29,544 nucleotides of DNA from an uncultured Candidatus Saccharibacteria bacterium (GCA_964398725.1 CAYNNE010000001.1:1-29544); one strand, 5' to 3'. Counted from the stretch's first letter, positions 1 through 27,127 are shown. Translations and numbers: made by a program. Notes: a model not told the origin generated them from the sequence alone.

Positions 1-414
1 CGCAATTTCATCTACCCTTTCATTTCCTGCAACACCAGAGTGTCCTTTTACTAAAATCCACTTCAATTTTTTGTTGCCAGCTTCTTTTTCTAATTCAATC
101 CATAATTCTTTATTTGAAACCGGTTGTTTCTGCATTGTCTTCCAATTGTTTTTCATCCAGTTTTTTACCCATTTTGTAATTCCATTTATTACATAAGAAG
201 AATCTGTATGAACCTCTCCCACATCTCCTTTCTTTAAGGGTTTAAGCGCGTGAATGGCAGCGGTGAGCTCCATCCTGTTGTTTGTCGTCTTTGGATTTGC
301 TCCGCCAAATTCTCGGATATGTTTTTCTCCAGCAACAATTGCGCCCCATCCCCCCGGCCCTGGGTTACCTTTCGCTGCCCCATCACAAAAAATTATGTAT
401 TTTTCTATTTTCAT
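1..414 (-). CDS. rnhA: Ribonuclease HI, 3' end runs off the window
   Basis: Not in the ORF track; hand translation from ATG at 414 gives MKIEKYIIFCDGAAKGNPGPGGWG...TTNNRMELTAAI...HTDSSYV...LVKGHSGVAGNERVDEIA, i.e. the RNase HI DG..GNPG, NNRMEL, TDS and KGH..GNE.VD motifs. Confidence 0.95.
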   Translation of the reverse strand, partial: MKIEKYIIFCDGAAKGNPGPGGWGAIVAGEKHIREFGGANPKTTNNRMELTAAIHALKPLKKGDVGEVHTDSSYVINGITKWVKNWMKNNWKTMQKQPVSNKELWIELEKEAGNKKLKWILVKGHSGVAGNERVDEIA

Positions 415-417
415 AAA

Positions 418-2037
418 TTAAATAATATCAATAATTCTCACTCTCCACGCATCCCTTCCTTTAAATGGATCCTCTTCAATATTCCCCAAAATATCAATAC
501 TTCCTCCATCAGCTTTCTTTTTCATATCTTCTCCAGCAAAAAATTTAATTGCTCTCGCCTTCTTTTCCCCTTGTGAAAATATTATTTCTAAGTGTTCTGC
601 AGTTTTTCCAAACATTTTTGTTTCTTCTGCCCAAGTTTTGGGGAAATGAAAAAGTGGCCTCTCATTAGCTAATCCAAATGGACGCAAACTAAAGAGAGAT
701 TTCAAAAAATGATTATTTATATCTGTTAACGAGACAACCGCATCGGCCAAATCATTTGCATCACTATCTTTATGAATTATTTTTTCTTTTGCAGAAACAA
801 GCGCATCGGCTAAATGATGAATTTTTTCTTTAACAACCGTAAATCCACCAGCCTCACGGTGTCCGCCAAATTGTAAAAATGTTTCAGATGCTTCTTGCAT
901 CAAATCGTGCATTGAAATAGTGCCGTTCCCTCTGCACGAACCACGGATTTCTCCGGAACCATCTTCGCCCCACAAAAATACCGGCACACCATATTTTTCA
1001 ACTAAGTTTGTGGCAACAAGCCCAAGTAGTGATGGGCGCCAATGCGTTGAGCCAAGCACCAATACGGGCTTTTCGTGTAATCCGCCCTCTATAATTCGTG
1101 AATGCGCTTCTTTTACAATTGAGGCAACCACGCCCTTGCGTGAATTATTTGTTCCTTCAAGCTCTCGAGCAAATACAATGGCTTCTTTATCATCTTCTGT
1201 CGCAAGTAAATCATACGCGAGGCGCGCTTCGCCCATACGAGATGCGGCATTAATGCGAGGCGCAATAGAAAAAGCCACATCATCTTCTGTAATGTTTCTT
1301 AAACGAAGTGAACTAATTAGTGCTTGTAAACCTTTACGGCGAGATTTCTGTAAAACCCTCAAACCAAAGTGTGCAAAAATTCTATTTTCATCTGTAAGAG
1401 GCACCATGTCTGCAATTGTGGCAATCGCCACCAAATCAAGAAGCCATTTTTCTTGACCGTCAGCTAATTTCAAAACATTTTTTTGTTGAAGTGCTTGCAC
1501 AAGCTTAAATGCAACACCCGCGCCACACAAACCCTTGAATGGATATTTACAATCTGGTTGCATTGGATTCAAAATGGCGTGTGCTTTTGGAAGTTCTCCA
1601 TTGCTTTCATGGTGATCAGTAATAATTACATCAATACCCGCCTCCTCTGCTGAATTAACTCCCTCATTGTTAGCAATTCCACAATCAACCGTGATTATTA
1701 AACCAACTCCTTTTTCTTTTAGGGCTGGAATTGAGTTTGAATGAAAACCAAATCCATCTGTGTGTCTGTCTGGAATATATGGAAACACTTTTGCTGGGGC
1801 ACCCTCTAATGCCTTACGGAGCATTACGCCAGCCGGAATTCCATCGGCATCATAATCGCTATAAACAGCAATTGTCTCCCCATTATCAAAAGCTTTTTTA
1901 ATGCGAGAAACTGCCTTATCCATATCTTTCATTAAGAATGGGTCATGTAGTTTTTCGTATTTTGGATTAAGAAAATCCTCTCTTTCTTCTGTTGTGAGAC
2001 CTCGCTTAGACAAAATTTCTTCAATAATTGGATGCAT
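418..2037 (-). CDS. recJ: Single-stranded DNA exonuclease RecJ (DHH/DHHA1)
   Basis: Motifs YSDYDADG, ITVDCG, IITDHH, ATIADMVPL, PRINAASR, FGGH. Start moved from track position 2205 to ATG 2037 (MHPII) because the longer ORF overlaps the divergent HIT gene. Confidence 0.95.
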   Translation of the reverse strand: MHPIIEEILSKRGLTTEEREDFLNPKYEKLHDPFLMKDMDKAVSRIKKAFDNGETIAVYSDYDADGIPAGVMLRKALEGAPAKVFPYIPDRHTDGFGFHSNSIPALKEKGVGLIITVDCGIANNEGVNSAEEAGIDVIITDHHESNGELPKAHAILNPMQPDCKYPFKGLCGAGVAFKLVQALQQKNVLKLADGQEKWLLDLVAIATIADMVPLTDENRIFAHFGLRVLQKSRRKGLQALISSLRLRNITEDDVAFSIAPRINAASRMGEARLAYDLLATEDDKEAIVFARELEGTNNSRKGVVASIVKEAHSRIIEGGLHEKPVLVLGSTHWRPSLLGLVATNLVEKYGVPVFLWGEDGSGEIRGSCRGNGTISMHDLMQEASETFLQFGGHREAGGFTVVKEKIHHLADALVSAKEKIIHKDSDANDLADAVVSLTDINNHFLKSLFSLRPFGLANERPLFHFPKTWAEETKMFGKTAEHLEIIFSQGEKKARAIKFFAGEDMKKKADGGSIDILGNIEEDPFKGRDAWRVRIIDII

Positions 2038-12070: not shown

Positions 12071-12655
12071 ATGCTTATACCAACAGTTATTGAAAAAGTC
12101 CCTCAGGGCGAGCGTGCCTACGATATTTATTCACGACTTTTAAAAGAAAGGATTATTTTTCTCGGTGGCCCAATAGACGACCATGTTGCCAACCTTATAA
12201 TTGCTCAATTATTGTTTTTGGAATCAGAAGATCCTAAAAAAGATATTTCTCTATACATAAATTCCCCTGGGGGCTCTGTAACAGCCGGTCTTGCTATTTT
12301 AGACACCATGAACCACATAAAGCCAAATGTATCTACGGTGGCAGTTGGTATTGCCGCATCAATGGGAGCAATAATTTTGTCTGCCGGAGCAAAAGGAAAA
12401 AGATTTGCTTTAACAAATGCGGAAATAATGATTCATCAACCTCTTGGTGGAGCAGAAGGCCAGGCATCGGACATTGAAATAAGTGCAAAACGCATTGTGA
12501 AAAACCGGGAAACAATGAATAAAATTCTTTCAAAAAATACCGGTCAACCTTTATCAAAAATAGAAAAAGACGTTGACCGTGATTTCTTTATGGATGCAGA
12601 AGAAGGGGTTAAATACGGAATAATAGACAAGGTTTTTTCGGGTAAAAACAAATAA
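12071..12655 (+). CDS. clpP: ATP-dependent Clp protease proteolytic subunit
   Basis: [25 protein letters not shown] (Ser), MIHQP (His), DRD (Asp). Confidence 0.98.
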
Positions 12656-12737
12656 AGTTCGCTCAGGGTACCACCTGAAATAGCGAGCGACGAAAGGCCA
12701 CCAATACTATTTCAGGTGGCACCCTTCGCTTTAAGTT
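12656..12737 (+). repeat. Family A palindromic element, copy 1 (after clpP stop)
   Basis: Arms 12665-12683 and 12707-12725 (19 bp, 1 mismatch); 23-nt loop cgagcgacgaaaggccaccaata. Confidence 0.9.
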
Positions 12738-12797
12738 TTAAATGAAAAGTAATATTTTTAATAAGACTAGATATTTGTAATAAAGTCAATAGTTAAT

Positions 12798-12826
12798 TTG
12801 ACATTAAATTAGCGTCGGAGTAATGT
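12798..12826 (+). promoter_or_regulatory. Probable sigma70 promoter for rny
   Basis: TTGACA (12798-12803), 17-nt spacer, TAATGT. Confidence 0.55.
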
Positions 12827-12905
12827 ACTAATGTGCCCTTAAAAAGCTGAAAATCAGAACGAAAGTAACGGTAGTTAAGCTAGAAAATCCCCTAAAAATT
12901 AAATT

Positions 12906-14435
12906 ATGTCATTACGATTGGTACTTCTCGCTGTAGCACTTTCTGCTGCGGCTGGTATTGCGTTTGGTTATTTTTTGAGATGGATTATCTCTCTTGGTCG
13001 CCGTGGCTCAATGGAGCTTGATATCAAGCAAAAAATGCTTGAGGCCCAAGAAGAGGCATCCCGTGTAAGAGCAGAGGCAGAACAAACAGCCGAAGAGATT
13101 TTAGAAACTGCGAGAAAAGAAATAAAAGAAAAAGAAGAAAAAACGCTCAAGCTTGAAGAGCGTCTTTTGAAGCGTGAAGAATTTTTAGACAACAGACAAG
13201 TTGATTTGGATTCTGAAAACGAAAACATAAAGGAGAAAACTTTGGAGATTGCGGTTTTGAAAGAAAAAGCCGACATTCTATTGTCCGAAAGACAAGAAAA
13301 ATTACAAAAAATATCTGGTTTGAGTAGCGAAGAGGCAAAATCAGAGGTTTTGAAAATTGCAGAAAAAAACGCAGAAAGCGACATAGAGTCCAGATTAAGA
13401 AAGCTCGAGATGGAGGGCAGTGAAAGACTTGAAAATAGAGCTAGAGAAATCCTCGCAACATCCATTCAGCGCCTAGCCACAGATGTGCCAGCGGAATTAA
13501 TGACCACGTCCGTACCTATCCCATCCGAAGAAATAAAGGGAAAAATAATTGGAAAGGAAGGAAGAAATATAAAAACTTTTGAAAGAGCAACAGGGGTGGA
13601 GGTGATTGTGGATGATACGCCCGGCACCATTACCCTATCCTCTTTTGATCCCGTAAGAAGACAAATTGCTCGCGCCGCGTTGGAAGAATTAATTAAAGAC
13701 GGCAGAATTCAACCTGCGCGCATTGAAGATGTTGTTGAAAAAGCAAAATTAGAAATTCAACAAATAATTAAACAAAAAGGAGAAGAGGCCGCTTATGAGT
13801 GTGGCGTATTTAATCTTGACCAAAGAGTAATTGCTATTCTTGGACGCCTACATTTTCGTACCAGCTACGGACAAAATGTTTTACAACACTCAATTGAAAT
13901 GGCACACATTGCAAGAATGCTTGCAGAAGAACTTGGAGCAGATGAAACTGTCGCAAAAACTGGTGCGCTTCTTCACGACATTGGAAAAGCACTAGACCAC
14001 GAGGTGCAAGGTACTCATGTGGAAATAGGAAGAAGAATCTTACAAAAATTTGGAATTAGCGAAGAAATTGTGAAAGCGATGCAGGCGCACCACGGCGAAT
14101 ATCCTTACGAAACAGTTGAGTCAGTGATAGTTCAAGTGGCAGACCAAATATCAGGAGGAAGGCCGGGAGCTAGAAGAGATACTGCAGAAAACTATGTTAA
14201 GAGGTTGAGAGAATTAGAGGCAATAGCACAGGAGTTTACGGGAGTTGAAAAAGCCTATGCACTACAAGCTGGGCGCGAAATAAGGGTTTTTGTCTCTCCA
14301 GAGGAAATAGGAGATATGGAGGCAAAGGATTTGGCTAGAAATATAGCCCTAAAAATAGAACACGACCTTAAATACCCAGGTGAAATCAAGGTAACGGTAA
14401 TCAGAGAAACAAGAATTACCGAGTTCGCAAGGTAA
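12906..14435 (+). CDS. rny: Ribonuclease Y
   Basis: N-terminal TM helix, coiled coil, KH domain (KGKIIGKEGRNI), RTSYGQN, HDIGK HD motif, SGGRPGAR, YALQAGREIRV. Confidence 0.98.
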   Translation: MSLRLVLLAVALSAAAGIAFGYFLRWIISLGRRGSMELDIKQKMLEAQEEASRVRAEAEQTAEEILETARKEIKEKEEKTLKLEERLLKREEFLDNRQVDLDSENENIKEKTLEIAVLKEKADILLSERQEKLQKISGLSSEEAKSEVLKIAEKNAESDIESRLRKLEMEGSERLENRAREILATSIQRLATDVPAELMTTSVPIPSEEIKGKIIGKEGRNIKTFERATGVEVIVDDTPGTITLSSFDPVRRQIARAALEELIKDGRIQPARIEDVVEKAKLEIQQIIKQKGEEAAYECGVFNLDQRVIAILGRLHFRTSYGQNVLQHSIEMAHIARMLAEELGADETVAKTGALLHDIGKALDHEVQGTHVEIGRRILQKFGISEEIVKAMQAHHGEYPYETVESVIVQVADQISGGRPGARRDTAENYVKRLRELEAIAQEFTGVEKAYALQAGREIRVFVSPEEIGDMEAKDLARNIALKIEHDLKYPGEIKVTVIRETRITEFAR

Positions 14436-14462
14436 TTATTGAAAAAATCAAAAAGAAATTTT

Positions 14463-14498
14463 CTAGCAACTTTTTCTCTGGCAACTGACAACTTTTAA
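14463..14498. repeat. Degenerate CTRRCAA heptamer run after rny
   Basis: ctagcaa ctttttct ctggcaa ctgacaa cttttaa. Confidence 0.5.
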
Positions 14499-14536
14499 GC
14501 TATTTTGTCAATGCTTTTATCAAAAATGTGGCTTGC

Positions 14537-14564
14537 TTGCGGTCTTTTTTGATAGGTCTATAAT
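14537..14564 (+). promoter_or_regulatory. Probable promoter for HU
   Basis: TTGCGG, 16-nt spacer, TATAAT (14559-14564). Confidence 0.55.
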
Positions 14565-14634
14565 TAAGGTACCTTTAGTTCGTGTAAAACGAGCTGGGAA
14601 AGCGGGTCGTTTATAAGAAAAGTTAAATTACAAA

Positions 14635-14910
14635 ATGATGAATAAAGCATCAATCGTTGAACAAGTTCACGCAAAGATTGGAGGAACAAAAGTTTCTTCC
14701 GAGCAAGCAGTTGAAACTATGATCGACTGCATAGTAAATACTTTGAAAAAGAACGGTGAGGTTTCAATTGCAGGCCTTGGTATCTTCTCAACGAAGACTC
14801 GAGCTGCAAGACAAGCAAGAAATCCACGCACAGGAGCTGCTATTTCTGTTCCAGCAATGCGCGTACCAAAATTCCGTGCAGCTAAAGCATTGAAGGACGC
14901 AGTTAAATAA
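14635..14910 (+). CDS. hup: Histone-like DNA-binding protein HU
   Basis: MNKAS, GLGIF, RAARQARNPRTG, VPKFRAAKALKDAVK. Confidence 0.96.
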   Translation: MMNKASIVEQVHAKIGGTKVSSEQAVETMIDCIVNTLKKNGEVSIAGLGIFSTKTRAARQARNPRTGAAISVPAMRVPKFRAAKALKDAVK

Positions 14911-14977
14911 ATAAATCTCAGAAAGCGAATCCTAAAAAATTTTGCTGAGTAAAATTTAAAGGACAAGGACCCGCTTC

Positions 14978-15011
14978 AACATAAAACTCCCCTTTCGGGG
15001 AGTTTTATGTT
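14978..15011. terminator. Bidirectional terminator
   Basis: aacataaaactcccc-tttc-ggggagttttatgtt between convergent hup and the 15013 ORF. Confidence 0.85.
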
Positions 15012-15012
15012 T

Positions 15013-15795
15013 TTATTTTGGATATTTTCTTATGGAAAGAAAGTGATAATAAAATTCTTCAAACTTTTTTTGATCGGCTGGTGGAGGAGTATTGGTAAAT
15101 TCTTTAAATCTCAATGCCAAAGTTGAGCTTGTTAGTCCGTCGTACTCTTTTATTAAATCTTTGAGTTCGTTTGCAGACAGGCTCCTAAAAAACCCTGTAT
15201 TTACAACCATTTCCGCTTGTTTGTTGCCATCTGCATCAATCTTGTTCCTGTAGTTATTATCTAATATGCCTTTAATTAGCCATTCTAGCTCCTTTACCCT
15301 AGCTAATGCCTTTGGCGTCGATTGGAGTTTAATTGTCTCTATATTTTTTATATAGGAGTTTTTTTCGTTTGTAAGAGTCGCCACTTTTTCCTGTAAATCA
15401 GAAACTGTTTTTCTTAGAGATTCATTTTCTGTTTTTAGTTTATTAATTTGCGCTATTAACCCATCGTAATTTGAATCTTGTGTCAGATTTTTTGATGTGC
15501 TAATTAGTTTGCTTTTTATTTGTGAAAAAGTTGTAGTAGCTGTTGTGGTTGTAGAAAAAGCAGTAGTTGAAGTTGCAATTGGTGTACTTGTTGCTACAGC
15601 TTCAACGACAGCTTCCCTCCCGCCCGACTGAACGGCCTCAGTCGTTCGGGCGGGCTTTATCTCTTTTATTATTTTTTGTTTGTTTCTTAACTCTGGAACT
15701 ACTTTCAAATTAGTTATCCAGGAGAAAAAACTGGAGTCCGCCGAAACCAAACTCGGTATTAATATGAGGCTTAAAATTAAAATCTTAAATTTCAT
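15013..15795 (-). CDS. Secreted Thr-rich/coiled-coil hypothetical protein
   Basis: Start reassigned to ATG 15795 (MKFKILILSLILIPSLVSA, a signal peptide); the track's 19 extra codons lie in or just after tRNA-Gly. Confidence 0.75.
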   Translation of the reverse strand: MKFKILILSLILIPSLVSADSSFFSWITNLKVVPELRNKQKIIKEIKPARTTEAVQSGGREAVVEAVATSTPIATSTTAFSTTTTATTTFSQIKSKLISTSKNLTQDSNYDGLIAQINKLKTENESLRKTVSDLQEKVATLTNEKNSYIKNIETIKLQSTPKALARVKELEWLIKGILDNNYRNKIDADGNKQAEMVVNTGFFRSLSANELKDLIKEYDGLTSSTLALRFKEFTNTPPPADQKKFEEFYYHFLSIRKYPK

Positions 15796-15821
15796 AAAAA
15801 TTGTAATGATGTCAGATACGG

Positions 15822-15892
15822 TGCGGGATGGGAGAATCGAACTCCCACCCACAGTTTGGAAAACTGTTATTCTACCATTAAACTAATCCCGC
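15822..15892 (-). tRNA. tRNA-Gly(TCC)
   Basis: gcgggat ta gttt aatggta gaat a acagt tt-TCC-aa actgt gggt gggag ttcgatt ctccc atcccgc a; full cloverleaf, 71 nt, no encoded CCA. Confidence 0.95.
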
Positions 15893-15906
15893 CTAGATAA
15901 AGAATA

Positions 15907-16353
15907 CTATCTTTCTTGCTCCAACTCTTCAACTGTTTTTAAAATATACTCATACCTATATTTTTGATTTCTATTAAACACTTCGAACACCCTTAAATCA
16001 TAGCGAATCCCATTTATTGTGTTTAATTCAATTCTTAATACTGCTCTTGGTTTATGTCCCGAAAGTGGTTGCATAAATTCATCGGTATCTACTTCTTCTC
16101 CGTTAACTACTCTTCTTATGGCGTCAGTGGACATTACCTGTGTCATTCCCATAGCTATTTCCTCTAGCCCATCATTACTTACCATTCCGTATCTACCACT
16201 AAGTGTTTCAAAAATTTCTTCTTCGTTCTCAAATGCCGTGTCTTTCAAATATTTGGCCAATTCTTCTATATCTAAATCCGATGATTCATATCTGCCATTA
16301 TCGCCATGCCCCTCTGGTGGCATTATTGGATCTTTTGGTTCTTCGTGGCTCAT
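15907..16353 (-). CDS. Acidic hypothetical protein
   Basis: Open 148-codon frame from ATG 16353 with TACAAT 8 nt upstream; no recognised family. Confidence 0.6.
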   Translation of the reverse strand: MSHEEPKDPIMPPEGHGDNGRYESSDLDIEELAKYLKDTAFENEEEIFETLSGRYGMVSNDGLEEIAMGMTQVMSTDAIRRVVNGEEVDTDEFMQPLSGHKPRAVLRIELNTINGIRYDLRVFEVFNRNQKYRYEYILKTVEELEQER

Positions 16354-16371
16354 TGGGTTGAATTGTATCAA

Positions 16372-16656
16372 TTAAAACAACGCTTGTATTTCTTCTGTAG
16401 AATCGTCTTCTACAATTGGAGCAGTTCTGTTAAAACCACACGCAACGCACTGAAGTTTAATTTTTATTGGCACGCCCCCTTTTGTTTCTACTCCTATGGG
16501 CTTCATTAATCCTTTACATACCTCTTCCCTATCTCCTGGGCTTATATCCACGTGTTTAGACCACAAGCATTTAGGACAATGATTGGTATAGCCATTCCCC
16601 ATAACTTTTGCTCCGCAATTTTCACAAACAAAGTTTTCTTTTGTACGGATAAACAT
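16372..16656 (-). CDS. RNHCP-domain-like zinc-binding protein
   Basis: F.CENCG...NGYTNHCPKCLWSKHVDISPGDR...C.G.M.P...C..CG; start taken at MFIRTKE (16656). Confidence 0.85.
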   Translation of the reverse strand: MFIRTKENFVCENCGAKVMGNGYTNHCPKCLWSKHVDISPGDREEVCKGLMKPIGVETKGGVPIKIKLQCVACGFNRTAPIVEDDSTEEIQALF

Positions 16657-16740
16657 AATATTGTCTGGATTACCAGACAAACATGTCGTCGCTCAAAAAT
16701 ACTAAAGCAAGCTTTGTATTTTATTCGCTCCTAATGTTTG

Positions 16741-16811
16741 TCGGGCCGCTGGGAATCGAACCCAGCCCTAATGCTCCCAAAGCATTTATACTACCGATAT
16801 ACTACGGCCCG
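16741..16811 (-). tRNA. tRNA-Pro(TGG)
   Basis: cgggccg ta gtat atcggta gtat a aatgc tt-TGG-ga gcatt aggg ctggg ttcgatt cccag cggcccg a; C1-G72 as in bacterial tRNA-Pro. Confidence 0.95.
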
Positions 16812-16950
16812 AAGAGAGAAACTGAACGAGGGTCCGTCGGAATTTATGACGATGTGGGCCCGCGCGCTTACAGAATATAACACATAGTACTCGTATAAGA
16901 CCACAAATTTGCGTATGATGTGTTTAATCGCGGATAAGGCGATATTAGAT

Positions 16951-17022
16951 GCACCCGTAGCTCAACGGATAGAGTACCGGTCTTCGGAACCGTGGATGTG
17001 GGTTCGATTCCTGCCGGGTGCA
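16951..17022 (+). tRNA. tRNA-Arg(TCG)
   Basis: gcacccg ta gctc aacggata gagt a ccggt ct-TCG-ga accgt ggat gtggg ttcgatt cctgc cgggtgc a; A20 present. Confidence 0.93.
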
Positions 17023-17081
17023 CAATAAGAAGTGGGGGTTTTTATTTTTGAGACATTCATAATATAATCACAGCTTGAGTT

Positions 17082-17152
17082 GCGGCTATGGTTTAGTGGT
17101 AGAACACGTCCTTGCCAAGGATGAGATGGGAGTCCGATTCTCCCTAGCCGCA
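17082..17152 (+). tRNA. tRNA-Gly(GCC)
   Basis: gcggcta tg gttt agtggta gaac a cgtcc tt-GCC-aa ggatg agat gggag tccgatt ctccc tagccgc a. Confidence 0.93.
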
Positions 17153-17315
17153 CAAAATTAGAGGTACTGGATGTTAGAATGTTTTGTGAGAAGTATGAAA
17201 ATAGTTTTGTCCGATTTTGGTCCTATAAGAAAATGAGTACTTTTTATCCCCTATCAAAAGAATGGCTCAACAACAAAGAAACTCTGCAATATATTTTCCA
17301 AAAAGGAATAATCAG

Positions 17316-17324
17316 TGTGGATAA
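17316..17324 (-). promoter_or_regulatory. Perfect DnaA box (TTATCCACA)
   Basis: tgtggataa in the AT-rich gap between tRNA-Gly and yraN. Confidence 0.55.
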
Positions 17325-17421
17325 GCTTGGGGACATGTGTATTAAAGACATTGATTGTCTTATAGCTTTATGTTCTAAAAGGGCTATAACTAGCCATATC
17401 GCTAAAAGTAGATACCAACAA

Positions 17422-17437
17422 TGTTTCATGTGAAACA
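17422..17437. other. parS-like site (1 mismatch)
   Basis: TGTTTCATGTGAAACA versus consensus TGTTTCACGTGAAACA. Confidence 0.8.
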
Positions 17438-17438
17438 T

Positions 17439-17822
17439 ATGCCTACAAAGAACAAAAACATCGGTAATAATGGCGAAAACCTAGTAGAAAGGTTTCTTGT
17501 GAAACAGGGCTATACCATTATTGGAAAGAACTATCTAAAGCCATGGGGAGAAATAGATATTGTGGCTAAAAATAAGGGTATTATTCACTTTATAGAGGTA
17601 AAGGCTAAGGAAATAACCTTAAACAACCAAAAATATGGCGATAAATATAGACCAGAAGACCATATGCACTCTTGGAAAGTTAGAAGGTTTAAAAGAATCA
17701 TAGAAACTTGGCTTATGGAAAAAGACTACGACGGAGAGTGGCAAATAGATGCGGCCATAGCCTATGTTTCACCTGAAACAAGTTTGGAATCAGTAGAAAT
17801 GTTCTGGGATATAGTTCTATAA
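17439..17822 (+). CDS. yraN: YraN family PD-(D/E)xK endonuclease
   Basis: G..GE.....FL...GY.I...N.....GEIDIVA......FIEVK; start taken at ATG 17439. Confidence 0.9.
   Translation: MPTKNKNIGNNGENLVERFLVKQGYTIIGKNYLKPWGEIDIVAKNKGIIHFIEVKAKEITLNNQKYGDKYRPEDHMHSWKVRRFKRIIETWLMEKDYDGEWQIDAAIAYVSPETSLESVEMFWDIVL
17491..17506. other. parS-like site (3 mismatches)
   Basis: GGTTTCTTGTGAAACA within yraN. Confidence 0.45.
17765..17780. other. parS-like site (1 mismatch)
   Basis: TGTTTCACCTGAAACA within yraN. Confidence 0.8.
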
Positions 17823-17851
17823 AGTCAGAATGCGCTAGAATATAAAAAGAA

Positions 17852-19318
17852 ATGGCAACCTTTCCAATACCAAAACCAGTTTCACATGTAACAAAAACCC
17901 TTATTGATGGGGGTTTTCAAGCGTATTTGGTTGGTGGATGTGTGAGAGATCTCTTTTTGGGGGAGAAACCCAAAGACTGGGATGTGGCAACAAATGCTAA
18001 GCCGGAAGAGATAATTTCTTTATTTACAAAGACTTTTTATGAAAATAGCTTTGGAACCGTAAGTGTTGTTCAGGAGGATGTGGAAGATGAGAGTTTAAAG
18101 GTAATAGAAATAACGCCATATAGAAAAGAGGGTACCTACACAGACAAAAGACGCCCAGATTCTGTGTCTTTTTCTAAAAAAATAGAAGACGATCTCTCTC
18201 GCAGAGATTTTACTATTAACGCCCTTGCATATTCTGTTGAAAATGATGAGCTTTTGGACCTGTTTGATGGTAGAAAAGACCTTATTTCTGGCCACATTAG
18301 AGCTGTTGGAGACCCAAAAGAGCGTTTTAGTGAGGATGCCTTGCGAATACTTCGCGGAATCCGCCTACATTCAGAACTTGGATTTGGTGTAGATAAAGAA
18401 ACTTTGGCTGGAATGAGTGAAAAGGTTGAGCTTTTAAGTTTTATTTCAAAAGAAAGAATAAGGGATGAATTTACAAGAATAATCAACTCTCCAAACCCCT
18501 CTCTGGGGCTTATTTTGGCTGATAGGGTAGGTGCACTCGAGTATATGCTCCCAGAACTCATAGAGGCAAAAGACATAGCTCAAAACCAAGCGCATTCGTT
18601 TGACGTATGGACTCATTTATTAAAATCTTTAGACCATGCTGCACATAAGAAGTACCAGTTTCACGTGAGACTAGCAGCTCTTCTTCACGATATAGGGAAA
18701 CCAGCTTCTAGAAGGTGGTCTGACGAAAAAAAGGATTGGACCTTTTACGGACACGAGGTTATTGGTGCAAAAATGGCTAAGAATATAATGGAAAGACTAC
18801 ATTTTTCACGTGAAACGACTAAAAAAGTGGTTAGTTTAATCCGTTGGCATATGTTTTTTTCTGATACGGAACAAATAACTCTTTCAGCCGTAAGGAGGAT
18901 GGTCTCAAATGTTGGAAAGGACCTTGTCGACGACCTTATGTCTGTTCGTCTTTGCGACAGAATAGGCACGGGCAGACCAAAAGAAAGTCCTTACCGCCTT
19001 CGTAAGTATCAATCAATGATTGAGGAAGTCATGCGAGACCCTATTTCTGTAGGTATGCTTGCTATAGATGGCAATGATTTAATAAAAATTGGCGAGAAAG
19101 CTGGACCACGCCTTGGCTATATACTTCACGCGCTTTTAAATGATGTTTTAGAGGAACCCAAAGCAAATACAAAAGAAAATTTATTAGAGAAAGCTAAAAA
19201 AATGGCTTTATTAAGCGATATTGAGCTAAAAAAGCTTGGAGAAATCGGGAAAATAGCAAAAGAACAAGAAGAGGGGGAGGAATTGGGGAAAATAAGAGCT
19301 AAATATGGGGTTAAATAG
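17852..19318 (+). CDS. cca: Class II tRNA nucleotidyltransferase (CCA-adding) with HD domain
   Basis: YLVGGCVRD, DWDVAT, loop EGTYTDKRRP, EDDLSRRDFTINA, FSEDALRILR, HDIGKP. Confidence 0.92.
   Translation: MATFPIPKPVSHVTKTLIDGGFQAYLVGGCVRDLFLGEKPKDWDVATNAKPEEIISLFTKTFYENSFGTVSVVQEDVEDESLKVIEITPYRKEGTYTDKRRPDSVSFSKKIEDDLSRRDFTINALAYSVENDELLDLFDGRKDLISGHIRAVGDPKERFSEDALRILRGIRLHSELGFGVDKETLAGMSEKVELLSFISKERIRDEFTRIINSPNPSLGLILADRVGALEYMLPELIEAKDIAQNQAHSFDVWTHLLKSLDHAAHKKYQFHVRLAALLHDIGKPASRRWSDEKKDWTFYGHEVIGAKMAKNIMERLHFSRETTKKVVSLIRWHMFFSDTEQITLSAVRRMVSNVGKDLVDDLMSVRLCDRIGTGRPKESPYRLRKYQSMIEEVMRDPISVGMLAIDGNDLIKIGEKAGPRLGYILHALLNDVLEEPKANTKENLLEKAKKMALLSDIELKKLGEIGKIAKEQEEGEELGKIRAKYGVK
17878..17893. 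other. parS-like site (3 mismatches)
   Basis: AGTTTCACATGTAACA within cca. Confidence 0.4.
18657..18672. other. parS-like site (3 mismatches, still near-palindromic)
   Basis: AGTTTCACGTGAGACT within cca. Confidence 0.5.
18802..18817. other. parS-like site (2 mismatches)
   Basis: TTTTTCACGTGAAACG within cca. Confidence 0.6.
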
Positions 19319-19394
19319 TCGCTCGTGTGTTTATTTTAAAAGCGAGCGACATAAGGTCACCAATGCTTTTAAAATAAACACACTCACTTTAAAT
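19319..19394 (+). repeat. Family A palindromic element, copy 2 (after cca stop)
   Basis: Perfect 18-bp arms 19325-19342 and 19366-19383; 23-nt loop cgagcgacataaggtcaccaatg. Confidence 0.9.
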
Positions 19395-19412
19395 ATAAAA
19401 ATGGAAATAGGG

Positions 19413-19451
19413 AATAAATAAAGAACACCCCGACGTGTGTCTGGGGTGTTC
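19413..19451 (-). terminator. Minus-strand intrinsic terminator
   Basis: gaacacccc / ggggtgttc stem (19423-19451) followed on the minus strand by tttatttatt. Confidence 0.7.
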
Positions 19452-19610
19452 GAGAGCGCAAATGACTGAGGAGCTCAACGCTGCTACCTTTTTACAATTT
19501 ATATTTTGTCGTAGTGTTGGTTGGTGGTCTACCTACTGCCAGTTGCATAAACAACTATTGCCTAACGGTCCCCAAGAGGAGAAAAGGGTCTCAGTTCTTG
19601 CTAGGCATCT
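19415..19610 (-). ncRNA. Candidate structured non-coding RNA (unassigned)
   Basis: End-to-end pairing 19458-19470 with 19590-19601, internal hairpin agttg/caact (19541-19556), and a terminator at 19423-19451; no recognised family. Confidence 0.25.
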
Positions 19611-19654
19611 AAAAGACATTGTATATCTAAAAGACAATTTGTATATAGAGATTA

Positions 19655-19663
19655 TGTGGATAA
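19655..19663 (-). promoter_or_regulatory. Perfect DnaA box (TTATCCACA)
   Basis: tgtggataa in the cca-exoA gap, 10 nt after an imperfect tandem repeat (19607-19644). Confidence 0.5.
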
Positions 19664-19705
19664 CTTTGTCCTTTAAATTAAGCGCTTTTAAATGGCTCGG
19701 TTGAG

Positions 19706-20476
19706 CTATATTTTTATATCTAATTCAATTGGGCAATGGTCTGAACCATAAATATCTTTCCAGATAAAACTTTTATTCACATCTTTTATTAACTCTTTGT
19801 TTACAAAAAAATAATCAATTCTCCAGCCAGCATTTCTGTCTCTGGCAAAAGATTTTTGATCCCACCAAGTGTATGCATTTATTGTCTCTGGATTTAAATG
19901 TCTGAAGGTGTCCACATATCCCTTTTCAATAACTTTGTCCATCCATGCTCTTTCAACTGGCAAAAAGCCAACATGTTCTGAGTTTTCTTTTGGTCTTGCT
20001 ATGTCTATTTCTGTGTGTGCCACATTTACATCCCCACAAAAAATGACTTTTTTGTGCTTTTTTCTTAATTTTTCAGCAAATTTTAGAAATTCTTCATAAA
20101 AACCAAGTTTATACTCCAGTCTCTCTGGAGCACCTCCGCCGTTAGGGAAGTAGCAATTTATAAGTACAAAGTCTTTATATACGACAGCAATCAAACGGCC
20201 TTCTTGGTCGTATTTCTCCACACCCATCCCATATAAAACCTCTTCGGGCTTCTCTTTTGCATATATAGCAACACCGCTATAACCCTTTTTTTCCTTAGGC
20301 CAATCAAAAAATGAATAATAACCTTGTGGGGTTGCAATCTCTGGTGGAAGTTGGTCTATTGTCGCCTTTACTTCTTGCAAACAAATAAAATTTGGGCTTT
20401 GTGTGAAAATCCAATCTAGGTTTCCTGACTTTAGGGTGGAGCGGATACCATTTAGGTTCCAAGAAATTATGCGCAT
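19706..20476 (-). CDS. xth: Exodeoxyribonuclease III / AP endonuclease
   Basis: SWNLNGIR, CLQEVK, YSGVA, EGR, YFPNG, GDVNVAH, YTWW, GWRIDYF, SDHCP. Confidence 0.96.
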   Translation of the reverse strand: MRIISWNLNGIRSTLKSGNLDWIFTQSPNFICLQEVKATIDQLPPEIATPQGYYSFFDWPKEKKGYSGVAIYAKEKPEEVLYGMGVEKYDQEGRLIAVVYKDFVLINCYFPNGGGAPERLEYKLGFYEEFLKFAEKLRKKHKKVIFCGDVNVAHTEIDIARPKENSEHVGFLPVERAWMDKVIEKGYVDTFRHLNPETINAYTWWDQKSFARDRNAGWRIDYFFVNKELIKDVNKSFIWKDIYGSDHCPIELDIKI

Positions 20477-20492
20477 ATGGAGTAGTTTACAT

Positions 20493-20520
20493 TTGCTAGT
20501 TGCTAGTTGCTAGTTGCTTG
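20493..20520. repeat. TTGCTAG heptamer array (3 perfect copies plus 1 variant)
   Basis: ttgctag ttgctag ttgctag ttgcttg, adjacent to family A copy 3. Confidence 0.85.
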
Positions 20521-20599
20521 AACTTGGAGCAAGAGTGCTCATTTAAAAAGCATTGGTGTCCTTATGTCGCTCGCTTTTTAAATGAGCACTCTTGCGAAC
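20517..20599 (-). repeat. Family A palindromic element, copy 3 (after Xer recombinase stop)
   Basis: Perfect 22-bp arms 20529-20550 and 20574-20595; loop reads cgagcgacataaggacaccaatg on the minus strand (23 nt). Confidence 0.9.
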
Positions 20600-21517
20600 T
20601 TATTTATTGTGAAATTTTTTATGAACGTCTCGCAGTTGTTTGTCTGTAACATGGGTATAAATTTGTGTAGTTCCAATATTTGCGTGTCCAAGAAGCATTT
20701 GAACACTTCGTAAATCTGCACCATTTTGCAAAAGATCCGTTGCAAATGAGTGGCGCACCACGTGAGGAGTTACTTTTTTTGAAATACCAGCTTTGATTGC
20801 GTAGTGTTTTACTAAACGCTGAACAGAACGAGGAGAGAGGGGAGAAACATCTCCTTTTTCTTTTTTTGAAGTTTCTACAAACAACGCATCAGACATATCT
20901 TTTCTTTTACTCAAATAATTTTTTAATGCCTTGCGCGCTTCATCTGAAAGAAAAACAACGCGAACTTTTTCGCCCTTTCCTCGTACTGAAAACTCATCGG
21001 AAGATAAATCTAATTCCCTAGGCAAATTACATAATTCAGAAACACGAAGGCCTGTTGAAAATAAAAGCTCGAGCACAGCCTTATCTCTAAGGCTTTTTAT
21101 ATCGTCATCGCTTGGCGCGGATAAAAGGCGCACTAATTCAGCCTTAGAAATTAAATCTAAATGCCTTTCACCAACTTTCGCTAACTCAATTCTGTCTGGT
21201 GGCAAACTTTGTACGCCCGTTCTCATTAAATATTTTAAAAATGCGCGAAGTGCAATTAAATAATAATTTTGTGTGCGTTTTTTCAAAGTTTGAGAATGGC
21301 CATCAATTTTTTCTCCCGAAGCTTGGCGATTGAGCCACAATCTGAAGTCGCGAACATTTGTATCTGAAATATCTTCTGCTTTTTTGAGTTCGCTCCATAG
21401 GGCAAAGCGGTTTAAATAGTGAGAATAGTTTTCAACCGTTTTTAATGAACGGCCTTTTTCTATTTCTAGATATTGAAGAAATTGGTGTATTTGTTCTTGG
21501 AGTTTAGTTTTTGCCAT
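20600..21517 (-). CDS. XerC/XerD-family tyrosine recombinase
   Basis: N-terminal SAM-like domain; TGLRVSEL, RGKGEK, HVVRHSFAT, LLGH, TTQIYTHV catalytic residues. Confidence 0.95.
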   Translation of the reverse strand: MAKTKLQEQIHQFLQYLEIEKGRSLKTVENYSHYLNRFALWSELKKAEDISDTNVRDFRLWLNRQASGEKIDGHSQTLKKRTQNYYLIALRAFLKYLMRTGVQSLPPDRIELAKVGERHLDLISKAELVRLLSAPSDDDIKSLRDKAVLELLFSTGLRVSELCNLPRELDLSSDEFSVRGKGEKVRVVFLSDEARKALKNYLSKRKDMSDALFVETSKKEKGDVSPLSPRSVQRLVKHYAIKAGISKKVTPHVVRHSFATDLLQNGADLRSVQMLLGHANIGTTQIYTHVTDKQLRDVHKKFHNK

Positions 21518-26064: not shown

Positions 26065-26161
26065 GAACTTAGAAGTGAGTTTTTGTTTTCGCCGTTCGTC
26101 TCGGAAGTTTTTTAGCATGGTAAATCAATGCGTGAACGCCGAAAACAAAAATGAACGAACT
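26065..26161 (-). repeat. Family A palindromic element, divergent copy 4 (after LysM-M23 stop)
   Basis: Arms 26080-26097 and 26134-26151 (18 bp, 1 mismatch); same flanks TAA-AGTTCG... and ...TCACTT..AAGTT; 36-nt loop. Confidence 0.75.
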
Positions 26162-27127
26162 TTAAAAGGGATTCTTAGCTCCACGAACTTCAAAGTGCAC
26201 ATGCGCTCCGGTTGTTTTTCCAGTTAAACCAACATGGCCAATCGTTTGTCCGCGTTCCACCTTATCTCCAACAGAAACGGTGTTGCTTGAATTGTGTGAA
26301 TACAAAGTTTGGGTACCATTATCATGCTGAATAACAATGTAGTTTCCATATCCTCCATTCCAACCTCCAGTTCTAGAGATGATAACAGTACCAGGAGCAG
26401 CAGCGGAGATAGGGGTTCCCACCGGAGCACCAAAATCAACTCCATTGTGTCCGTGTAAGCCTTGAGTTTTTCTGCCAGATATTGGTCTCAAATAGTACCC
26501 AACCACTACTTGTTGTTGAGATTCAACAAATCTTACGGGTGTTCCACTATTCACCGAGCCCATTTCACCGTCTGGGACAATAACAATATCTCCTATGCTT
26601 AACTTTGTATCCTTAGATATATCGTTGTAAGCCAAAATATCTTCTAGGCTAGCTTTGTAAGATTTTGCTATTGTTGCCACGGTATCGCCCTTCTTAACCA
26701 CATGTCTTACTCCAGAAATAGGCAAAATGGTGAGTGTTTGGCCCTCCTTTAAAGTATTAGTGGTTAAATTATTGGTCCATCTAATAGTATTTACTGAAAC
26801 ATTAAACATTTTGGCGATTGTAGATAATGTGTCTCCCTTTCTCACTATATATATAGAAATCTGATCGGATGATGGTTTATCTTTTATGTTTTCCGCCAAA
26901 CCGCCCGCTGGGGAGTCTTGGGGAACCAAAGCGTCATTGTCTACTAAAATTTCTGCTCCTCCCATTGCTAGGTCTTGGTTTGAATTAAGCGCCGCCTGAA
27001 GAAGGGGGATATTTTGTGAATTATAGATTTTTGGTAAGTCCTTATTGCTTTTAAAAACTCCGCTAAAAAAATCCGTTATTCCTGCATAAACTGGGCTTAT
27101 GGGCAAAAGCACAAAAACAGAAGGCAA
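26162..27127 (-). CDS. LysM-repeat M23 family peptidase (cell-wall hydrolase)
   Basis: Two LysM repeats (YIVRKGDTLSTIA, HVVKKGDTVATIA); M23 HNGVD and YSH and HVHFEV motifs. Start codon uncertain. Confidence 0.93.
   Translation of the reverse strand: MPSVFVLLPISPVYAGITDFFSGVFKSNKDLPKIYNSQNIPLLQAALNSNQDLAMGGAEILVDNDALVPQDSPAGGLAENIKDKPSSDQISIYIVRKGDTLSTIAKMFNVSVNTIRWTNNLTTNTLKEGQTLTILPISGVRHVVKKGDTVATIAKSYKASLEDILAYNDISKDTKLSIGDIVIVPDGEMGSVNSGTPVRFVESQQQVVVGYYLRPISGRKTQGLHGHNGVDFGAPVGTPISAAAPGTVIISRTGGWNGGYGNYIVIQHDNGTQTLYSHNSSNTVSVGDKVERGQTIGHVGLTGKTTGAHVHFEVRGAKNPF

Follow-up and report, generated by a model that had tools for sequence, protein, structure and literature searches.

What are the near-perfect palindromes that follow the stop codons of several genes in a 29,544-nt stretch of Candidatus Saccharibacteria DNA, and by what means did they come to lie there? 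The stretch, referred to below as the window (coordinates are positions within it), contains three such hairpins, here called family A, behind the genes for ClpP, a CCA-adding enzyme and an Xer-like recombinase. An earlier reading of the sequence, the original prediction, had singled out their conserved loop as the defining feature. The analysis presented here confirms that the hairpin family is real; the original observation holds, and the family is larger than was reported, being the smallest member of a modular superfamily of non-coding palindromes.

Family A in the window and in its genome

The loop pattern of family A was matched in the window at 12684-12705 and 19343-19364 on the plus strand and at 20552-20573 on the minus strand, i.e. 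at all three of the predicted places, and in none of 100 shuffled sequences. The open reading frames (ORFs) preceding copies 1, 2 and 3 terminate at 12655, 19318 and 20600, and were assigned by Pfam to ClpP, to a CCA-adding/poly(A)-polymerase-family enzyme and to an Xer-like tyrosine recombinase, respectively. ORF ends and Pfam assignments therefore agree with the prediction that the copies follow the stops of clpP, cca and an Xer recombinase gene in the sense orientation. When a fourth element found in the window is included (Table 1), the strand of the elements tracks that of the genes: copies 1 and 2 lie on the plus strand behind plus-strand genes, and copies 3 and 4 on the minus strand behind minus-strand genes.

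The assembly from which the window derives (G000; Candidatus Saccharibacteria, 578 kb in 54 contigs, 38% G+C) contains 16 matches to the family A loop (loop A). It is apparent that these, too, are associated with gene ends. Fourteen of the 15 complete copies are preceded by a same-strand ORF of 102-633 codons, and the distance from the ORF end to loop A is 19-33 nt, 28 nt being the commonest value. A bias of orientation relative to stop codons, which was among the checks proposed with the prediction, is thus present across the genome, and the structured, orientation-biased family is far larger than the three copies from which it was first recognized.

Anatomy of family A

Twenty-nine copies from the window's genome and that of a sister species (G004) were aligned. 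The consensus consists of the stop codon, 0-3 purine-rich bases, TCGCTC, GGG, a variable shaft, AAAAGC, a 21-nt loop, GCTTTT, the second arm, CCC, TCRCT and YTAAGT. The loop had been described as always 23 nt long; it is in fact 21 nt in 25 of the 29 copies, where G-C and C-G pairs close it, and reaches 23 nt only in copy 1, where a closing pair is broken. Sixteen of the 21 loop positions are invariant across the 29 copies, and positions 6, 8, 9 and 14 vary even where the shafts are identical. Nor are the stems mostly unrelated in sequence, as had been thought. They form one diverged family with a common pattern (GGG, a T-rich run and AAAAGC) and contain near-identical subgroups.

The shafts are paired in 94.6% of cells, and both sides have changed in 19 of 21 pairs. 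None of 500 shuffles gave a value as high, and no slid register came close. The helix extends beyond the shaft, past a conserved 2x2 pyrimidine mismatch in which CTCG is opposed to CTCG (C-G, T·C, C·T, G-C), and into the (GT)TCGC flank. The flank was correctly recognized in the original prediction as a conserved sequence, but it does not lie outside the hairpin: its position 4 (C or T) covaries with a position in the 3′ flank (G or A), giving 17 CG and six UA pairs, as would an extension of the helix. Two alternative folds were considered, and neither was favoured. A mini-stem within loop A (positions 5-7 with 13-15) was rejected, since positions 6 and 14 do not covary. In the other, the flank would pair with the loop; the loop GAGCGA is constant, and changes of C to T in the flank are compensated by the 3′ flank and not by the loop, which supports the extended hairpin, although the two folds may conceivably alternate as a switch. 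A search of the genome for a partner complementary to loop A gave only chance matches of at most 12 nt.

Pair counts over 56 elements were 926 Watson-Crick, 19 G·T, 29 A·C and 45 other mismatches. The wobble signature of a sense-strand RNA was not seen in the shafts of these elements, and the fact that G·U pairs are not enriched makes it less likely that the stem is constrained purely at the level of RNA. Moreover, many of the double changes in the shafts are transversions, for which a wobble intermediate is impossible.

A superfamily with a common foot

Further subfamilies were found when the foot of the hairpin, instead of the loop, was used for searching. At least five subfamilies have in common the stop codon, 0-3 purine-rich bases, TCG-CTCG, a Watson-Crick shaft, an apex, CTCG-CT and YTAAGTAYT. 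The apical module is the 21-nt loop in subfamily A and consists of 36-190 nt of nested hairpins in the others (Table 1). Loop A is consequently the apex of one subfamily, and the feature common to all is not the conserved loop but the foot, where the stem begins. Approximately 30 foot-bearing elements were found in G000 and 22 in the sister genome; about 6% of genes carry one. In the rod of subfamily B, 31 of 54 pairs are compensated, and the 307-nt copy of subfamily C differs from a 145-nt copy in having an apical segment of approximately 190 nt in place of a short hairpin, this segment itself holding a small foot-bearing hairpin.

A match to a known Rfam family would deprive the elements of novelty, and an Rfam search had been proposed for that reason. 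Rfam 15 at gathering score identified only four tRNAs in the window, and, at E values up to 5, eight element loci and a locus from the related genome G003 gave only spurious miRNA-hairpin matches. No published description of the repeat family was found in the literature searched. A consensus terminator scan called none of the three family A copies terminator-like, and they have no U-tract. In subfamilies B and C, an apical hairpin with a GC-stem and a T-run was seen by eye; it was not called by the scanner because the T-run pairs with an A-run. The presence of this GC-stem and T-run makes full-length RNA pairing doubtful in those two subfamilies.

Spacing from the stop codon

For 40 foot-bearing elements from the window's genome and the sister genome, the nucleotides separating the stop codon from CTCG were counted. 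Their number is 6 in 28 of the 40, 5 in four, 3 in three and 7 in two. The ordinary terminator-like hairpins of the window's genome begin anywhere from 0 to 50 nt past the stop; the tight spacing is therefore specific to the elements and is not a general effect of genome compactness. The stop is TAA at approximately 83% of the elements, as compared with 65% of long ORFs genome-wide, and the purines that follow element-bearing stops are unlike the genomic context.

These observations raise the possibility that the elements are host-functional RNA modules of the 3′ untranslated region, acting as a terminator, as a barrier to 3′-exonucleases or as a partner of the terminating ribosome, with loop A as the site for an RNA-binding protein and spread as a by-product. 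The strict sense orientation, the enrichment of TAA and the fixed 6-nt spacing all favour this explanation, the last placing the first stable pairs about 10 nt past the stop, close to where the front of a terminating ribosome would be. So do the invariant loop positions, the terminator-like hairpins embedded in B and C, and the fact that, in a sister species, an ordinary terminator hairpin takes the position of the element after the CCA-adding enzyme gene. The shafts, however, speak against it, in that G·U does not exceed A·C or other mismatches in frequency and transversions account for many of the compensations, as does the lack of a U-tract in family A. Furthermore, a terminator at the apex of B or C would stop transcription of the 3′ arms, yet these arms covary. 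Two further objections, the narrow distribution of the elements and their replacement by one another, arise from the results that follow.

Distribution across genomes

Of 40 relatives, the sister species G004 alone was found to have loop A. In a scan of 185,579 species genomes, which may omit records of the window's own genome, the sole multi-copy carrier was again the G004 assembly, a metagenome-assembled genome of an uncultured Candidatus Saccharibacteria. The other matches in that scan were single, occurred in unrelated GC-rich genomes and were about as numerous as expected by chance. Metagenome contigs with loop A represented a groundwater strain 99.5-100% identical to G004, together with three contigs from other relatives. 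The 3′ foot motif was present 17, 10, 8, 5, 3 and 3 times in the genomes of six species of the genus. Outside the genus it was found at most two to three times and mostly not at all or once (75 other genomes of the family and 150 from other families of the order), and reversed-pattern controls gave a similar background. The foot is restricted to six species of one genus, and loop A to two of them. The confinement of the elements to a single genus, and their presence at only about 6% of genes, speak against host-functional RNA modules.

Turnover, replacement and copying

The whole sister genome was compared with that of the window, including the flanks of each element. Most element sites are common to both species, but the occupant is often different: seven orthologous stop codons hold different subfamilies in the two species (A/B, A/C or A/D). 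In some of these exchanges the foot variant and part of the shaft have been retained and the apex exchanged. Where family A is present in both species, behind the CCA-adding enzyme and recombinase genes, the shafts are strongly diverged and fully compensated, and the loops differ only at the variable positions.

Other sites carry an element in only one of the two genomes, the counterpart being empty or resembling a scar. In one such case the stop and start codons of the sister genome overlap, which indicates that the element there was gained. The position of the stop is the same whether or not an orthologous site is occupied. Several intact elements are followed, in every case on the side distal to the stop codon, by 3′ stubs of other subfamilies. 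In addition, elements 94-97% identical to each other occur at loci with unrelated flanks, both within and between the genomes of the two species, whose orthologous coding DNA is 80-91% identical. Site swaps, filled and empty sites, stubs and near-identical copies together demonstrate copying to new loci and replacement at occupied loci. That different subfamilies replace each other at one site is the remaining objection to the elements as RNA modules, an explanation that we consider somewhat unlikely overall.

Some individual loci are of interest in their own right. Orthologous sites at C27:7619-7730 in G000 and C7:10508-10620 in G004 carry three 3′ halves, of subfamilies C, B and B′, after the stop; these run in opposite order in the two species, and only the first is complete in each. 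The end of clpP is an insertion hotspot: in a sister species (locus L061, G003:C3:13400-14700, bases 412-1068, minus strand), the gap behind the gene has a subfamily B element and also an extra 218-codon ORF, on the opposite strand, that is absent from the window's genome. No donor locus was found for 58 extra nucleotides inserted together with the element of contig 37.

A proposed DNA-level repeat docked behind stop codons

The explanation towards which we lean, with modest confidence, is that the elements are a modular DNA repeat of the REPIN, BOX or miniature inverted-repeat transposable element (MITE) type, devoid of a transposase and docked after stop codons, in which loop A is the core of one subfamily. 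Its basis is the copy number, the distribution, the stop spacing, the covariation without wobble preference, the turnover, the stubs and the near-identical copies at unrelated loci. Repeated copying, restriction to a genus, replacement, stubs and wobble-free palindromy, considered jointly, fit a selfish DNA-level repeat best. Propagation at the DNA level, recognition of the foot and a role at mRNA 3′ ends would follow from this proposal as outlined below.

Elements would be copied as DNA to new gene ends and across lineages, landing directly 3′ of a TAA or TAG stop in the orientation of the gene. Later arrivals would overwrite earlier elements, and apical modules would be exchanged when copies recombine with each other. 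The foot is the best candidate for the feature recognized by the copying activity, probably on a folded single strand or a cruciform; loop A would serve as a subfamily-specific core, and the shaft could have any sequence, provided that it pairs by Watson-Crick rules. A factor binding the loop on DNA or RNA, as proposed in the original prediction, may also take part. The elements are probably tolerated and perhaps useful, since the hairpin in the mRNA may end the transcript or block 3′ decay past the terminating ribosome. Judged from sequence features, a role as a portable 3′-end hairpin is plausible, especially for B and C with their terminator-like hairpins.

A number of results weigh against this proposal. 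No clean junction of a recent insertion or excision was recovered. The sole structural difference between G004 and the near-identical groundwater strain was considered as a clean empty site and rejected, as it consists of an imported homologous-recombination tract, plus scaffold gaps. This tract covers a gene start and the intergenic region, and exchanges a family A element for a 1-kb gene. It lies at L213:1-330, corresponding to G004:C9:14480-15720, in strains that are 99.9% identical, and replaces the first ~40 codons of a Rossmann-type gene; the allele with the 1-kb gene opposite the family A element has its own promoter-like site.

The search for a mobilizing enzyme was likewise negative. 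An HUH or RAYT (REP-associated tyrosine transposase) partner had been suggested, but the Y1/HUH family PF01797, which includes RAYT and IS200, had no match in G000, G004 or G003, three genomes of the genus that include both loop A carriers. IS110 and TnpB are absent from the loop A carriers, and a scan covering three DDE families (PF01609, PF00665 and PF13359) found none in five genomes of the genus. RAYT, IS110, TnpB and these DDE families were therefore rejected as the mobilizer. Reverse transcriptase was rejected as well, because three diverged copies occur in G004 (and two in G002) but none in the window's genome. Each genome has one Xer-like tyrosine recombinase gene, as do all relatives. 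No autonomous version with the same foot was found in the range of 0.4-6 kb. Finally, even orthologous resident copies show no variation at 16 of the 21 loop positions, an observation that selection for a host or RNA function would explain as readily as recent replacement would.

Certain of the genes encountered in this search have features of their own. The PF01797 matches of two sister species, G001 and G002, have unrelated hairpins of their own on either side: these RAYT-like Y1 transposase genes (L194, L195 and L196; 217-225 codons) are REPtron-like, each lying between its own pair of identical short hairpins, which are unrelated to the foot family. The reverse-transcriptase genes of G004 (C2:6740-7351, C1:53291-53818 and C15:9560-10168) are 67-69% identical in DNA sequence, and one of them lies inside an insertion of approximately 2.6 kb adjoining the region orthologous to 10.9-11.3 kb of the window.

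The same results bear on two further explanations. The first is that the elements are sites of single-strand DNA recombination or nicking. As with integron attC, IS200/IS605-REP or rolling-circle origins, an HUH nuclease or a structure-specific recombinase would act on the folded strand and cut it at the loop or the mismatched foot. Palindromy maintained at the DNA level without wobble is consistent with this, as are the position of new elements, always stop-proximal with older ones displaced downstream, and the variable terminal structure on a conserved base, which resembles attC architecture. The conserved stem mismatch also fits; the opposite strand reads as tandem G·A in a CGAG/CGAG context, a stable motif. 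The carriers, however, have no Y1/HUH gene, and their only tyrosine recombinase is the ordinary Xer-like gene of every relative. There are no R/L boxes and no cassette arrays, the elements standing behind syntenic housekeeping genes, and their orientation tracks genes and not the direction of replication. Such sites are in our judgement clearly unlikely.

The second is that the elements are ordinary MITEs of a DDE-type insertion sequence with a TAA/TWA target, their location after stops reflecting the lethality of other insertions in a compact genome. They do have long inverted arms, many copies and a patchy presence, and TAA is found on both sides of many copies, with TAG on the 3′ side also at two sites with a TAG stop. 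A copy-specific target-site duplication, on the other hand, was not detected: similarity between the flanks of the same copy was 3.75 of 6 positions, as compared with 3.74 for permuted pairs (p = 0.5). This result, which is a further difficulty for the docked repeat as well, rules out a duplication longer than the stop triplet; a 3-bp duplication of TAA or TAG is possible. The 5′ and 3′ tails differ, so that the termini are not inverted repeats, and neither an autonomous element of 0.4-6 kb nor, in five genomes of the genus, a transposase of the three DDE families was found. A symmetric DDE mechanism would not yield near-100% sense orientation, and, by a rough estimate, intergenic TAA sites far exceed those in stop codons. 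It is very improbable, then, that the elements are MITEs of this kind. It was also considered whether the shaft is copied from the local target, and this was rejected, the longest word shared by arm and flank being 6.29 nt as against 6.34 nt for the arms of other elements.

A last difficulty for a docked DNA repeat is that a DNA target of TAA followed by purines cannot alone explain the location at true stops and the sense orientation. This argues that transcription or translation matters for where elements land or for which copies survive. Much more tentatively, the elements may represent transposase-independent, gene-end-sensing propagation of palindromes in Saccharibacteria, the mismatched CTCG/CTCG foot being the handle for a host or phage activity that installs, overwrites and reshuffles hairpins exactly one codon behind the stop and so couples a selfish repeat to translation termination or mRNA 3′-end formation; we regard this as doubtful at present.

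The setting lends the elements some importance. Saccharibacteria and other bacteria of the candidate phyla radiation have very small, dense genomes with few classical mobile elements, and yet in the window's genome a single modular repeat family occupies some 30 gene ends. Should the elements serve as portable 3′-end signals, they would show how ultra-compact genomes build and renew their gene ends; if they are purely selfish, the fixed stop spacing and the failure to find a transposase would point to an undescribed mode of mobilization. In practice, they break assemblies, mark points of strain recombination and turnover, and would confuse the prediction of terminators and small RNAs.

Elements of the window and other genome features

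The elements of the window and the subfamilies are listed in Table 1.

Table 1. Foot-bearing elements in the window, and subfamilies of the superfamily. Start and end positions of elements in the window include the stop codon of the gene.
Feature	Position	Strand	Length	Details
Family A copy 1, 3′ of clpP	12653-12737	+		Stop TAA 12653-12655, tail AGT; 5′ foot TCGCTC 12659-12664; shaft 19 bp, 12665-12683 paired with 12707-12725; loop 12684-12706; 3′ foot TCGCT 12726-12730, tail TTAAGT
Family A copy 2, 3′ of CCA-adding enzyme gene	19316-19394	+		Stop TAG 19316-19318, foot abutting; 5′ foot TCGCTC 19319-19324; shaft 19 bp, 19325-19343 paired with 19365-19383; 21-nt loop 19344-19364; 3′ foot TCACT 19384-19388
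Family A copy 3, 3′ of Xer-like recombinase gene	20517-20602	-		Stop TAA 20602-20600; degenerate 5′ foot TCGCAA; shaft 23 bp, 20529-20551 paired with 20573-20595; 21-nt loop 20552-20572
Fourth element, short form of subfamily C, 3′ of LysM/M23 peptidase gene (Pfam)	26065-26164 (element 26065-26161)	-		TAA-AGT-TCGTTC, shaft, different 36-nt apex, CTCACT-TCTAAGT
Subfamily A			~70 nt	Apex a 21-nt conserved loop; 16 in window's genome
Subfamily B			175-208 nt	Nested rod, CTCG/CTCG motif repeated one level in, tip hairpin of A-run/GC-stem/T-run; ~10 copies
Subfamily C			85-307 nt	Apex a strong GC-stem/T-run hairpin; includes window 26065-26161 (-)
Subfamily D			175 nt	Distinct apex; one or more copies
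Subfamily E			106 nt	Apex resembles expanded loop A; one or more copies

In the sister species, the ortholog of copy 2 has kept the loop on a nearly unrelated shaft, an ortholog of copy 3 is present, and the site of the fourth element holds only a scar-like remnant. Copy 3 sits in a 123-nt gap ahead of an exonuclease III-like gene. Between this copy and the start of that gene (20478-20516, minus strand) are three tandem AGCAACT heptamers, which are retained, with changes, in the sister species.

Two other repeated sequences were observed in G000. One is a second, unrelated family of perfect palindromes, TGTGTTAAAATACTACC-AATT-GGTAGTATTTTAACACA, with approximately 10 copies (for example at C4:6866-6911, C7:22130-22167, C27:4496-4549, C35:2291-2330 and 2838-2875, C39:4449-4486 and C50:1537-1582) and a sister variant, with ...ATACTCGC-GATT-GCGAGTAT... 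at its centre, at C17:133, C26:997 and C30:1599. This family could be an operator or a promoter-linked site. The other is the conserved stretch ...CTGCCCGAC-TGAAGTCGTTCAGGCGGGGCTCAGTT, which occurs three times, on C13, C20 and C21 (minus strand, 9228, 3481 and 7800 in reverse-complement coordinates); two of the occurrences lie just upstream of a tRNA-like sequence, and an rRNA or structured RNA gene may end here.

Comparison with known systems

It was of interest to compare the foot family with known hairpins and repeats. The bacterial selenocysteine insertion sequence (SECIS) is likewise a hairpin lying at a set distance past a stop-type codon; its apical loop is conserved and its stem is free. 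The codon preceding the foot family, by contrast, is TAA or TAG and not TGA, and the proteins end at the same residue in relatives without an element. Recoding received no support: there is no in-frame UGA, and the stop has the same position at filled and empty orthologous sites. Intrinsic terminators resemble the foot family in being hairpins close behind the stop, and the GC-stem and T-run of B and C add to the likeness. Family A differs in its AT-rich shaft of 19-25 bp, its 21-nt loop and the absence of a T-tract, and the genome's own terminators lie at variable distances.

Correia elements of Neisseria are MITEs of approximately 70-200 bp. They have inverted arms, their terminal inverted repeats are defined, and they are associated with a TA duplication; they can act as terminators or RNase III substrates and vary between strains. 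The foot family has asymmetric termini, no detected target duplication and no DDE transposase of the three families scanned. Integron attC sites immediately follow the stop of the gene before them, in the sense orientation, and are recombined as a folded single strand, with a conserved paired base containing unpaired positions and a variable terminal structure. The foot family is similar in its post-stop sense placement, its conserved base with a mismatch and its variable apex. It is distinguished by the absence of IntI, of RYYYAAC/GTTRRRY boxes (as judged by reading) and of a cassette array, the associated genes being syntenic housekeeping genes.

REPINs, or REP (repetitive extragenic palindromic) sequences with RAYT, are short non-coding hairpin repeats with many copies, conserved ends, a compensated middle and defunct remnants, for which a single-stranded DNA hairpin is the presumed intermediate (Bertels & Rainey 2011, PMC3116915). 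The foot family shares the multiple hairpin-forming copies, the compensatory changes and the remnants, and the paired, doubly changed shafts of family A agree with the REPIN criterion of a hairpin doublet with compensatory changes. REPINs, however, are described as randomly distributed in extragenic space (PMC3116915), whereas the foot family lies at a fixed spacing behind stops in the sense orientation. A further criterion for REP sequences is a tetranucleotide, GTAG or CGTC, that tags one end of the palindrome (PMC3733652); no such tag is present at the foot, whose ends read TCGCTC ... TCGCT-YTAAGT. The loop A carriers (G000 and G004) have no RAYT, and what is conserved is a foot and an apex, the latter modular and nested, not two inverted REPs. 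In these respects and in its docking at stop codons, family A differs from classic REP elements, as had been predicted.

The BOX elements of Streptococcus pneumoniae and the mosaic elements BIME and NIME are built of pairing end modules and variable inner modules, are often near gene ends and, to our knowledge, have no identified cognate transposase. The foot family has no sequence similarity to BOX, and is set apart from it by its fixed-spacing docking at stops, by the conserved 2x2 mismatch of its foot and by the recursive nesting of the CTCG/CTCG motif inside subfamily B.

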